Of a stretch of DNA of 32,000 bases, positions 9,761 to 14,175 are shown one piece after another. The notes beneath the pieces are model-generated. The model was not told where the DNA came from, made no database searches, and saw only the letters and a list, made by a program, of their open reading frames with translations. The DNA is from Candidatus Absconditicoccus praedator. GTDB taxonomy: Bacteria > Patescibacteriota > Gracilibacteria > Absconditabacterales > Absconditicoccaceae. The stretch is from contig NZ_CP054059.1 of NCBI RefSeq assembly GCF_021057185.1, positions 510,001-542,000 on the forward strand, read 5' to 3'. The position numbers and the translations under genes were made by a program. The stretch's first letter is position 1. Each line of letters starts with the position of its first letter.

Positions 9761-10558
9761 ATGAAATACAAAATCATTACCATTATTTGCATCTTCTGTG
9801 TTGCAATGTTTAGCAACAACGTTCATGCAAACAACTATAATGAAGGTATTTCCTACAGCAACTATGCTGCTAATTTTGTAAAGATACCTTTTAGAGCCAC
9901 CCTAGAACCGTTTAGAGGAGACCAAAAGGGCATTAAGAGGAATTTAATAATTGCAACAGGAGTAGGTTTAACTCTGGCTTATGATCAAGATATTAGAGAT
10001 TACGTTCAAGATGAAGTATATGGAGGAAGCAATTCATTAAGTAGATTCCTTTATAATGTGGGAAGCAAAGATTACGCTATACCTGGGTTCTTAGGAGTGT
10101 ATGCAATAAGTGCAATTTCTGGAAATAGGTACTTTTTCGACACTATGAACCTATCTTTTCAGTCATTTCTAATCACACAAATGTTTACTGAAATTACCAA
10201 GGGGACAGTAAACAGAATAAGGCCCAGAAATAGCCCTGATGACCCCTTTAACAGAGAAGATGATGCTCAATCATTCTTCTCAGGACACGCAAGTGGAACA
10301 TGGGCAGTTGCTACTGTATTTGCCCAAAGGTATCCATCTTTCCAGATACCAGCATATACTCTAGCAACTTCTGTTTCTCTCTCAAGAGTCTATGAAGACG
10401 CCCATTGGATGTCTGACGTGCTTGTTGGTTCTTTAGTAGGCTATGGAATTGCTAGGCTGACAATTAGACTAAATGATGCATATCCAAATAATCAAGTACA
10501 GGTATCACCTGTGTTTGATGGAGATTCAGTAGGTGCCACCATTGGATTCAGGTGGTAA
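9761..10558 (+). CDS. PAP2-superfamily (type 2 phosphatidic acid / undecaprenyl-PP) phosphatase with signal peptide
   Basis: Track ORF, intact in the standard code. Signal peptide MKYKIITIICIFCVAMFSNNVHA. PAP2 motifs K....RIRP, FFSGHAS and SRVYEDAHWMSD. It has 20 Gly codons, all GGN and none TGA. GC is visibly higher, about 40% in sampled 60-nt lines versus 13-25% in sampled neighbouring lines. Confidence 0.88.
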   Translation: MKYKIITIICIFCVAMFSNNVHANNYNEGISYSNYAANFVKIPFRATLEPFRGDQKGIKRNLIIATGVGLTLAYDQDIRDYVQDEVYGGSNSLSRFLYNVGSKDYAIPGFLGVYAISAISGNRYFFDTMNLSFQSFLITQMFTEITKGTVNRIRPRNSPDDPFNREDDAQSFFSGHASGTWAVATVFAQRYPSFQIPAYTLATSVSLSRVYEDAHWMSDVLVGSLVGYGIARLTIRLNDAYPNNQVQVSPVFDGDSVGATIGFRW

Positions 10559-10566
10559 AAAATACT

Positions 10567-10598
10567 GAGGTGGAAGGAAACCCTTTCCACCTCTTTTT
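10567..10598 (+). terminator. rho-independent terminator, possibly bidirectional (also just downstream of convergent elp3)
   Basis: GAGGTGGAAGG-aaacc-CTTTCCACCTC forms an 11-bp GC-rich stem including one G-U pair, followed by TTTTT at 10594-10598. An A-run precedes the stem. Confidence 0.7.
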
Positions 10599-10622: not shown

Positions 10623-12440
10623 TTATAAATCTTTTACCATATATGTTCACTCCAAATGATATCAAAGTTTTCTATAATAATCTCTAACTCCTACTCAAGA
10701 AATTACAGAGATTTTCTTATAGTTTTTTCATAAAGATATTCTTTCTGATATTTCCATCATTCTGCTTCAAAATCATTTATGCTGAAATGTATCTTCAATA
10801 TTTTTATTTATTTTTGCCAATTGTCAATAAACATGTAATTCCCTAACCATAGCTACATTTTCTCATAATCAATCTCGATTTATAGTATTTTTTTCATAAG
10901 GTAAAAGCAACCTTAAAAAACCATATAAATAACCAAACTCATCCTCAAAACTTATAAAAAACTCTTCACCTACAGATGAAAAATATTTTCTTATAATTAA
11001 AAGTTCATTTTGGGCATCTTCTGTTCTATTTGATATTTCTCTTGCTCTTGTATCCAATGATACAAAATTTCTTGGATTATTTAAATTTGGCTTTCATCAA
11101 ACAATATATGTTTTTTCTGTATTATTTCAATTTTCAAACTCAAAAATATTTTCAAAATTATCTAAATAACAAGAATTGGGATAAAGTCTTTTATAATGGT
11201 TTTCTCTTAGAGAAGAATCTTCTTTGTACTCTTTATGCATATTATTCATTACTATTTGTCTTAGGTTTGTTAGCTTACTTCCTGCAACTATTTCTGTTTC
11301 AGGAATATCTCTAATAAGTCTTTTTATTCTAGTATAAGGAGGAATCGTATCAACTTGAACTTTTTTGGTAATATGTTTTATTTGTTCATTAGTAAGTGGC
11401 TCATAATATCATTCTTTTCGAAGCTCATACAATCTAGTATTTGGAATCACTGAAGTAGGATAAAATTTAATTTCATCAGGCTTCATAAAAACATCTGAAT
11501 ATGCTTTTTCCATTGTTTTTATATCTTTTTCCACACTAGATCAATATAAACCAGGCATAAAATGACAAGAAAACTTAAATCAGTATTGTCTTAATTTATG
11601 CAAAGAGTTCCTTGCCTGTTGTACAGTGTTTCATCTATCATTTTTTTCTAAAACATCATCGTACAAACTCTGTATTCAAATCTCCAGTCTTGTAACACCA
11701 AGCTCTCTCCAAAATTTACAATTTTCATCTGTTACAAATTCTGGTCTTGTTTCTATAGTTAGTCATATGATTCTACAATCAGCTTTTTCATTATTTTTTT
11801 GAGATTCCTCAAGGGTTTTATCAAAATTTTGTTCAAAATTATCAGTAACTGTAAACTTAGAAAATTTTAAATCATTTCAATCTAGTTTATTTTTTGATTT
11901 AAATTCAAAAAAAGTATTGCATGCATCATACAAAGATTTTACAAACCATCTTTTATATTCTTTTGGATAACTATCCCATGTTCACCCCAAAACTATCATC
12001 TCTATTTTATCTATATCATGTCCTGTCATAAAAAGAGACATCAATCTATTATAAGTTTGCTTGATAGGATCAAACTGATTTAGTAATGCTCTCATCGCTC
12101 AAGGCTCTGTATTGATATAACTTTTGGGCATCGTTGCATCATCTGGACAAAAAATACATTTTCAAGGACATGGCCAAGGCTTTGTAAGAACTTGAACTGG
12201 TACAATTCAAGATTTGCTTCTTATTCATCTTTTTCTTAGAGATTTTCTAACATTTGATTTAGGAGTGATTTTTCATTCATCAACCATTTTATTGTATGTT
12301 GCCAAAACCTGCATATTTGTTGGGACATTACTTAATTTTGATTCTTTTGCAAACTTCTTTTTTAAATCCTTGATCAAATCAGGAACTATTTCATTATCTT
12401 GATATGAAACTATTTCTTTTACTAAATTTTCAAGATTCAC
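10623..12440 (-). CDS. elp3: Elp3-family radical SAM / GNAT acetyltransferase (tRNA U34 carboxymethylation enzyme homologue)
   Basis: About 605 aa from GTG at 12440; an in-frame TAA lies 4 codons upstream. Sequence: RSKSGIVPVQVLTKPWPCPGKCIFCPDDATMPKSYINTEPGAMRA...VLGGTWDSYP...IGLTIETRPE...LGVTRLEIGIQS...FMPGLYGS...RIKRLIRDIP...(GNAT) VRELHVYGQL...QHKGFGSRMMEISERIS...GVRDYYRKLGY. It contains track ORF 10869-11057. Stop TAA. Confidence 0.85.
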
Positions 12441-12497
12441 TTGATTATATTAAAATATAAATTAATTTTTTATAATTATATAATATTAAAATACAAT

Positions 12498-12776
12498 TTA
12501 AAATATTGTTTCCAACTCTACAAATCTATCAGATTGATATTTTACATAAGTTTTACATGTCTTAATTACATCTGATTCTACATAACTTCAATCTTCTGAT
12601 AGTAACAAATCTTTTCAAGTTTTGACTCTACAAGAACAAATTCAACATTTTCATTGCATACAAGAATACGGCATATTGAAAGATGTTTTTAGTATCAGAT
12701 TCAATATTGTGTTATTCTCTTCAGCTTCTAATTTCCAAGATTTTTTATTATCAGATTTTATAATAATCTTTGTCAT
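12498..12776 (-). CDS. plant-type [2Fe-2S] ferredoxin
   Basis: 92 aa: MTKIIIKSDNKKSWKLEAEENNTILNLILKTSFNMPYSCMQGKCGICSCRVKTGKDLLLSEDGSYVESDVIKTCKTYV... Cys ligand pattern is C39-x4-C44-x2-C47...C74. All four Gly codons are TGA. It lies 57 nt upstream of elp3 on the same strand. Confidence 0.75.
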
Positions 12777-12996
12777 TATAAATTTTAATAGTAAATAATA
12801 TATTTAAAAAATATTTTTGTATACCTATATTTATATAAAAAATTTTTAATTTTAAAAGTAAAAAGTTTGAAAATTAATAATAATTATTTTTCGTAATTTT
12901 GATAGTTAATAAACCCAAAAAAATTATTTTTGACAGACCTTGAATTAAAATATAAATTTTTTATACATAACAAATAGTTATATAATAAATTAATAG

Positions 12997-14175
12997 ATGA
13001 AAAAACTAAATAAAATCATTGCAAAAATAATAATTTTTTTTATAAAAATATATCAATATACTTTATCACCAGATAAATGAATACCATCTTTTTGGTTAAA
13101 ATGAAAAATATGTGTACACAATCCTCACTGTAGTAAATATTGAATACAAGTACTAGAAAGATACTGATTTTACCCTTGATTTTTTATGTTAATGGAAAGA
13201 GTAAGTAACTGTCATCCTTGGAATAGCAACACCTACGATCCTGCATATTTACAAACAGTTTTTTTTAGTAGTGCTCCTATATGAGTACCATTTCTTGAAG
13301 AATTAATAAAAGACAAAAGATATAATATACAAGCAGTTGTAACACAACCAGATAAACCAGCCGGAAGATGACAAAAAATAAAAGAAAATATAATCAAACA
13401 AGAAGCCAAAAAATTATGAATAAATAAAATTTTTACACCAGAAAAAATAAACCCAAATAAATCTATAGAATGAAAAGAATTTTTCAAGGAAATCGAAAGA
13501 CTAAAACCAGATGTAATATTAGTAATAGCTTATTGAAAAATAATTCCTATCGATTTGCTAAATTTGCCATCAAAATGAGCCTTAAATATTCATTGATCAT
13601 TACTTCCCAAATATCGCGGTGCTTCTCCAATACAATCAGTGTTCTTAAATAATGAAACTTATACTTGAATAACTTTGATGAAGATGGCTCCTAGTATGGA
13701 TACCTGAGACATTATCAAACAATTATCATTTGAAATATGATTTAACTGGACATCAAAAGATATTATTGATAAATTTATGCAAGTATGACCCAAATTTACT
13801 ACAGAAAATATACGAAAATATGCTAAAAAAGAACTTATAGAACATCCACAAGATAAATCAACAGCTACTTATTGCCATAAAATAGAAAAAAAAGACTGAA
13901 AAATAGATATATTTACAACACCTCTTGAGGATATATTCAATAAATACAAAGCATTTTTCTTGTGGCCCAAAATCTGGTTTGAAATAAGTAATAATTTAAA
14001 CAAAAAAATAATAATAGAAGAAATGAAAATAGATGAAGAAAAGTTTGATTTACATAAAAAAAAGCCATTGATTGACAAAGATTTCTATCTAAATCAATCA
14101 ATAGACTTACTAAGAGTAAAGCCTGAATGAAAAAAAGCTATAACATGGAATGAATTTAAAAAATGATATCTTTAA
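12997..14175 (+). CDS. fmt: single ORF fusing YidD (membrane protein insertion efficiency factor) to methionyl-tRNA formyltransferase
   Basis: 392 aa, every codon checked, preceded by TAA TAG. N-terminal 84 aa: IKIYQYTLSPDKG...ICVHNPHCSKYGIQVLERYGFYPGFFMLMERVSNCHPWNSNTYDPAY (YidD). This runs directly into LQTVFFSSAPIGVPFLEEL...TQPDKPAGRG...VIAYGKIIP...LNIHGSLLPKYRGASPIQ...TGITLMKM...DTGDII (Fmt). There is no ATG, GTG or TTG at the Fmt N-terminus. Confidence 0.8.

Follow-up and report, generated by a model that had tools for sequence, protein, structure and literature searches.

A plant-type ferredoxin encoded upstream of elp3 in Candidatus Absconditicoccus praedator: probably a general electron donor rather than a dedicated partner of Elp3

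What reduces a prokaryotic Elp3, a radical S-adenosylmethionine (SAM) enzyme, in the cell? This question is raised by a locus of Candidatus Absconditicoccus praedator (GCF_021057185.1, contig NZ_CP054059.1, positions 510,001 to 542,000), in which a gene for a 92-aa plant-type [2Fe-2S] ferredoxin (fdx) lies directly upstream of a gene for Elp3 (elp3). Positions marked "window" refer to this 32,000-nt stretch, which was analysed at its full length, and positions marked "genome" refer to the host contig. Work on prokaryotic Elp3 in vitro has relied on dithionite as reductant, and, as a preliminary description of this DNA had supposed, no physiological reductant is reported in the literature searched. 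The same description proposed that the two proteins are a redox pair, possibly linked to the decoding of UGA as glycine. The explanation favoured here, which is held to be probable though well short of certain, is that the locus consists of two ordinary intact genes that are neighbours in this lineage only, and that the ferredoxin is the cell's general electron donor, specific neither to Elp3 nor to UGA=Gly decoding.

The elp3 gene (window 10623..12440, minus strand) encodes a protein of 605 aa with radical-SAM and GNAT/KAT domains, and its GTG start lines up with the N-termini of the family. On the same strand, fdx (window 12498..12776) precedes it across an A+T-rich spacer of 57 nt (window 12441..12497). 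Code 25, in which TGA is read as glycine, gave the exact coordinates of both genes, and code 11 fragmented both frames. There are 25 in-frame TGA codons in elp3 and four in fdx; those in elp3 fall at conserved glycines, e.g. in CPGKC, LGGT and QHKGFG, and several of these glycines are invariant. The host genome is complete in a single contig of 1,129,696 bases with 28% G+C and about 1005 genes.

The identity of Elp3 follows from a score of 468.6 bits against NCBIfam TIGR01211 (curated cut-off 350), together with matches to Radical_SAM and Radical_SAM_C. The best solved relative is Elp3 of Methanocaldococcus infernus (6IAZ, E = 1e-86), to which the C-terminal 130 residues also align. The cluster triad C90-x3-C94-x2-C97 in CPGKCIFCP aligns with the M. 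infernus protein and with all 11 relatives, and the acetyl-CoA motif Q-x-x-G-x-G, present as QHKGFG, is conserved in every aligned sequence. The protein thus has the Radical-SAM, Radical_SAM_C and KAT architecture, the Cys triad and the acetyl-CoA motif of the stand-alone Elp3 proteins of M. infernus (6IAZ/6IAD) and Dehalococcoides mccartyi (5L7J), which were matched with E = 1e-86 and 6e-83, respectively, and, as for these, further Elongator subunits are not expected in the host. It differs from them in its 25 TGA=Gly codons, in two lineage-specific insertions that the family shows relative to archaeal Elp3 (residues about 176-205 and 407-476), and in the linker, where C-x-C-x2-C is replaced by SLDTRAR (AIDTRSR in the relative G138). 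This linker motif, which we take to be the zinc site of the solved Elp3 structures, is retained in G114 and in most Elp3 relatives outside the family. As it varies among proteins that score far over the cut-off, it does not appear to be strictly defining for Elp3. From its sequence, the elp3 product is probably an enzyme of tRNA U34 carboxymethylation, giving 5-carboxymethyluridine (cm5U).

Three other class genomes carry Elp3 frames of 742-859 aa (G008:C4:30578-32665, G139:C40:15506-17899 and G146:C50:1249-3639), in which the profile match is interrupted near position 176-182 by ~160-250 residues. An intein may account for this interruption, as may a long stretch inserted into the radical-SAM domain.

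The ferredoxin scored 37.7 bits against PF00111 (gathering cut-off 21). Its predicted cluster ligands, C39-x4-C44-x2-C47...C74, are conserved in 13 family orthologues, and among solved structures it is closest to ferredoxins of plants, cyanobacteria and the apicoplast, that of Plasmodium falciparum (1IUE) being second-best. The scores against TIGR02008 (33.3 bits) and the YfaE model NF007985 (25.8 bits) are below the respective cut-offs of 81.15 and 75, and these scores place the protein in the fold family but outside the TIGR02008 subfamily. It is the sole Fer2 domain match in the 1.13-Mb host genome. Both gene identities, the four cysteine positions, the 57-nt distance and the common strand are exactly as given in the preliminary description.

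Elp3 and Fer2 positions were mapped across 151 genomes belonging to the host's class. A survey of 46 genomes from 43 genera, together with a previous sample of 15, extended this to about 52 family genomes, and the loci of 18 relatives were inspected gene by gene. The host's genus is represented by this single genome and offers no same-genus relatives for comparison. Of the about 52 family genomes, the host alone has fdx directly upstream of elp3, and the arrangement did not recur anywhere else in the class sample. The conserved adjacency for which the preliminary description had proposed to survey gene neighbourhoods is therefore lacking in family and class alike. In the closest relatives as judged by Elp3 (63-67% identity), either a glutamate dehydrogenase gene (gdh) intervenes or the two genes are unlinked. 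The former arrangement is seen in G138, where local synteny (YidD-Fmt, HtpX, GrpE) is retained; glutamate dehydrogenase is absent from the host genome altogether. In G317 and G324, whose Elp3 proteins are 67% identical to that of the host, different genes lie upstream of elp3; the ferredoxin gene of G324 is on a separate contig, and Fer2 was not found in G317. Elsewhere in the family, fdx is flanked by genes for an S41 peptidase and a sigma-70-family factor (G011, G029, G065 and G105) or is on the strand opposite to elp3, 2.5-4.6 kb away from it (G011, G029, G145 and G312). In class genomes outside the family, the two genes are 22 kb to >1 Mb apart or on separate contigs.

Nor does the presence of Fer2 track that of Elp3 across families. 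Family f8 has Fer2 in 15/15 genomes and is essentially without Elp3 (1/15, a weak match), and Fer2 is rare or missing in the Elp3-positive families f16 (1/12), f19 (0/8), f25 (0/2) and f30 (0/3). Clustering of 20 Fer2 neighbourhoods, drawn from 16 families, gave no neighbour that recurred across families. The ferredoxin gene is thus free-standing, without a fixed partner.

The role of the ferredoxin was considered in the light of the other redox proteins of the host. Profile searches of the genome found no Flavodoxin_1, Fer4_7, Fer4 over cut-off or pyruvate:ferredoxin oxidoreductase, and a scan of all frames of >=60 aa found no CxxCxxCxxxCP motif; a rubredoxin-like motif was also sought and not found. 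Among the models searched, the ferredoxin is therefore the genome's sole recognisable low-potential soluble carrier. A single flavoprotein resembling ferredoxin-NADP reductase (FNR) is encoded at genome 404080-404910 and comprises FAD_binding_6 and NAD_binding_1, an architecture shared with eukaryotic Cbr1. The FNR-like protein and the ferredoxin match different portions of the fused BenC/PaaE families, namely the reductase and the Fer2 portion, respectively. Among 16 family genomes, which are mutually related and in some cases incomplete, 11 have both the FNR-like protein and Fer2, three have neither, and two have one only (one of each kind).

Potential clients of the carrier are numerous. 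The host genome has 22 Radical_SAM matches, several of which could be named through NCBIfam: Elp3, a MiaB-family methylthiotransferase, RlmN, NrdG (adjoining NrdD), a HemW-like protein, an SPL-like protein, HxsB and HxsC. About 14 of the 22 lie in a 26-kb island (genome 844000-870000), HxsB (413.8 bits) and an HxsC-like protein among them, and the enzymes of this Hxs island would be the chief competing clients for the lone ferredoxin. A second MiaB/MtaB-like frame (genome 1063972-1064826) spans profile positions 161-399 only.

In the proposed mechanism, NAD(P)H would reduce the FNR-like flavoprotein, which in turn would reduce the ferredoxin, the direction of electron flow being our inference. 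From the ferredoxin, electrons would go one at a time to the [4Fe-4S] cluster of every radical-SAM enzyme, Elp3 being one client among about 22 that would also include the MiaB-family, RlmN, NrdG, HemW-like and SPL-like proteins and those of the ~14-gene Hxs island. A comparable system is that of the apicoplast, where LipA and MiaB, both radical-SAM enzymes, are supplied by a ferredoxin/FNR pair (PMC8844926). There, too, one plant-type [2Fe-2S] ferredoxin and one NAD(P)H-dependent flavoprotein are the sole redox pair for several Fe-S clients. However, the host reductase is nearer to the BenC/PaaE-type module than to plant FNR, the clients differ, and the host chain is a prediction from gene content. 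For eukaryotic Elongator, NADH-dependent Cbr1 reduces the small iron protein Dph3/Kti11, the proposed reductant of the Elp3 cluster (PMC5699542, PMC5543170). Cbr1-Dph3 is thus a functional analogue of the proposed host chain, in which electrons would likewise pass from a flavoprotein through a small iron protein to the cluster of Elp3. Whereas Dph3 is rubredoxin-like, the host carrier is a [2Fe-2S] ferredoxin, and no homology of the carriers is implied.

Several observations count against a general, free-standing ferredoxin as the donor. In G138, fdx, gdh and elp3 are on a common strand with short spacers. The chance that a lone ferredoxin gene flanks any radical-SAM gene was estimated from about 1005 genes, 22 radical-SAM matches and one ferredoxin at ~4%, which would allow for local selection on co-expression. 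That further carriers are absent follows from a handful of Pfam models and a single motif scan. Three family genomes that are 88-91% complete (G152, G156 and G159) have Elp3, and no Fer2, FNR-like protein or flavodoxin was found in them. Similarly, families f16 and f19 are Elp3-positive, and apart from the single f16 genome counted above neither Fer2 nor Flavodoxin_1 was seen in them; searches of five family genomes without Fer2 likewise gave no flavodoxin. Elp3-positive genomes of this kind imply that the group has an unrecognised reductant, which could serve the host too.

Transcription of the locus was assessed from its layout. Co-transcription of fdx and elp3 in the host is plausible because the spacer has no terminator-like site, as the preliminary description had stated, and its fold is no better than those of shuffled sequences (z = -0.58). 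A promoter-like TTTAAA-16-TATAAT in the spacer is uninformative in DNA of about 25% G+C. Between the convergent elp3 and PAP2 genes, just past the elp3 stop, there is a G+C-rich terminator-like hairpin (window 10567..10593) with an 11-bp stem, six G-C pairs and T runs on either side. On the minus strand it folds with -18.1 kcal/mol (z = -2.64 versus shuffles) and has a U run, and it is likely the 3' end of an fdx-elp3 transcript. The promoter of this transcript is presumably located in the 220-nt divergent intergenic region between fdx and yidD-fmt (window 12777..12996), as judged by the gene layout; matches to consensus promoters in this region are weak.

These data bear on whether the ferredoxin evolved as an Elp3-specific reductant, with the two genes forming a functional operon. 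Such a dedicated pair would account for the common strand, the short spacer without a terminator and the terminator placed after elp3 only; the a priori chance of the ferredoxin gene flanking elp3 specifically is about 0.2%, and in G138 both genes occur within one same-strand cluster. Nevertheless, a dedicated donor is very unlikely because the pairing is not conserved in relatives, and it was rejected on the class (151) and family (46) position surveys and the loci of the 18 relatives. It is further contradicted by the occurrence of Fer2 without Elp3 in f8 and of Elp3 without, or nearly without, Fer2 in f16, f19, f25 and f30. A ferredoxin that is the sole carrier found for about 22 radical-SAM enzymes cannot be dedicated to one of them. 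Thus, of the redox pair suggested by the preliminary description, the plausible co-transcription stands and the dedicated donor does not. A broader carrier function, in which the ferredoxin feeds oxidative-stress enzymes or a membrane oxidoreductase of Absconditabacteria and has no special tie to radical-SAM enzymes, is in line with the Vampirococcus paper, which counts ferredoxin among the electron carriers of SR1 and proposes that it donates electrons to a conserved membrane protein of three domains or serves redox balancing (PMC8080830). Such a role is compatible with that of a general donor, and ~22 radical-SAM enzymes need a reductant for which no other candidate was found; as the explanation in place of a general donor, it is quite unlikely. 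The ferredoxin could also resemble YfaE of Escherichia coli, likewise a small [2Fe-2S] ferredoxin of Fer2 type that occurs alongside class I NrdAB, and maintain the metal/radical cofactor of class I NrdB rather than serve radical-SAM enzymes. Consistent with this, NrdA and NrdB are encoded in the host, the YfaE model gives a weak match (25.8 bits), a Fer2 gene lies 3.5-4 kb from nrdB in family f4 (G003, G024 and G049), and in G005 (C38:1918-3143) Fer2 adjoins nrdB at a distance of 225 nt. However, unlike yfaE, the host gene is not beside nrdAB but about 49 kb from nrdB, and its product does not reach the YfaE cut-off. Furthermore, f8 and f11 have Fer2 but no NrdB, and the reverse holds for f25 and f30; a YfaE-like role is therefore considered unlikely.

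With respect to ribonucleotide reduction itself, class I ribonucleotide reductase and class III NrdD/NrdG coexist in the host (genome 470807-473832 and 240569-242499, respectively), the class I enzyme consisting of NrdA and a 440-aa NrdB with an N-terminal ATP-cone. The closeness of Fer2 and nrdB genes in f4 and G005 resembles the nrdAB-yfaE layout of E. coli.

The remaining question is whether Elp3 itself is tied to the reading of UGA as glycine. Elp3 over the cut-off was found in 126/151 class genomes, 65/151 phylum genomes and 0/10 model-bacteria controls. Hence, the statement of the preliminary description that bacterial Elp3 is sporadic fails in this lineage. A 2020 review placed bacterial Elp3 in Dehalococcoides only and a 2026 paper in 'numerous bacteria'; the literature searched holds no paper that joins Elp3 with the biology of Patescibacteria or the candidate phyla radiation (CPR). 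Absence of mnmE and mnmG, which the preliminary description had proposed to check, holds for the host genome, where MnmE matches come solely from the GTPase domains of a Der-like protein, and no MnmG over cut-off was detected in the host or in the 151 genomes of the class. Because Elp3 is present in recoded and non-recoded families alike and MnmG was not found in the class, Elp3 is the class's ordinary U34 route, replacing MnmE/MnmG, and not an adaptation to UGA=Gly.

In about 12/30 sampled class loci, a gene for a methyltransferase of ~225 aa is head-to-head with elp3. The host has a Trm9-like homologue of 241 aa (genome 487271-487996), which matched the profile of these elp3-adjacent methyltransferases with E = 3e-47 and has Trm9 5CM2 as the best solved match. 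Thus, both proteins of the Elp3-Trm9 module of CPR bacteria are present in the host, but the module is broken, with the Trm9-like gene ~33 kb away and fdx upstream of elp3. Elp3 would make cm5U34 on tRNAs with U34, and the unlinked Trm9-like methyltransferase and MnmA (genome 473936-475045) would build on its product. Judging from these gene products, a pathway of the 5-methoxycarbonylmethyl(-2-thio)uridine (mcm5(s2)U) type with dispersed genes is likely in the host, and tRNA-Gly(UCA) may well be a substrate of Elp3.

It is a different matter whether Elp3 specifically serves recoding by modifying U34 of tRNA-Gly(UCA) against the reading of UGG, as the preliminary description had speculated. 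The host genome encodes tRNA-Gly(UCA) beside tRNA-Trp(CCA) and lacks MnmE/MnmG, every sampled recoded family has Elp3 (f1, f22, f25, f29 and f30), and with MnmA present, the 2-thio (s2) group could be added. Yet the non-recoded families of the class have Elp3 equally regularly, as do 65/151 phylum genomes, and on this ground the role was rejected as specific. In addition, substituents of the xm5 type allow U34 to pair with G, whereas s2 gives preference to A (review, PMC5699542); therefore, the Elp3 product alone would not prevent misreading of UGG and would even favour it. A UGA-specific function of Elp3 is accordingly highly improbable. Combining the two lines, the FNR-like protein and the ferredoxin might form Elp3's physiological reductase chain, with the locus as one operon, while Elp3, the Trm9-like protein and MnmA build mcm5(s2)U34 on tRNAs including tRNA-Gly(UCA) and so set UGA/UGG discrimination, but this composite proposal as a whole is regarded as unlikely.

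Two further genes flank the locus. On the fdx side, a 392-aa frame (window 12997-14175, plus strand) contains YidD and a complete Met-tRNA formyltransferase (Pfam YidD, Formyl_trans_N and Formyl_trans_C). The G138 homologue has 389 aa, and the fusion is thus probably real and shared. On the other side, the PAP2 phosphatase gene (window 9761-10558, plus strand) has no TGA codons, as compared with 13-25 in its neighbours, and the 2-kb segment around it has the maximum G+C of the window (0.304). The PAP2 gene may be a recent acquisition.

Both genes of the locus are of known kinds, and the locus is of value as a minimal candidate system in which to ask how a prokaryotic Elp3 is reduced. With one FNR-like flavoprotein, one ferredoxin and no rival carrier found, the host genome offers a small and defined candidate chain for the reduction of Elp3, in which the ferredoxin would probably act as the general donor. 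The near-universal occurrence of Elp3 in the class, where no MnmG was found, bears on models of wobble decoding for CPR bacteria, including those with a recoded UGA.

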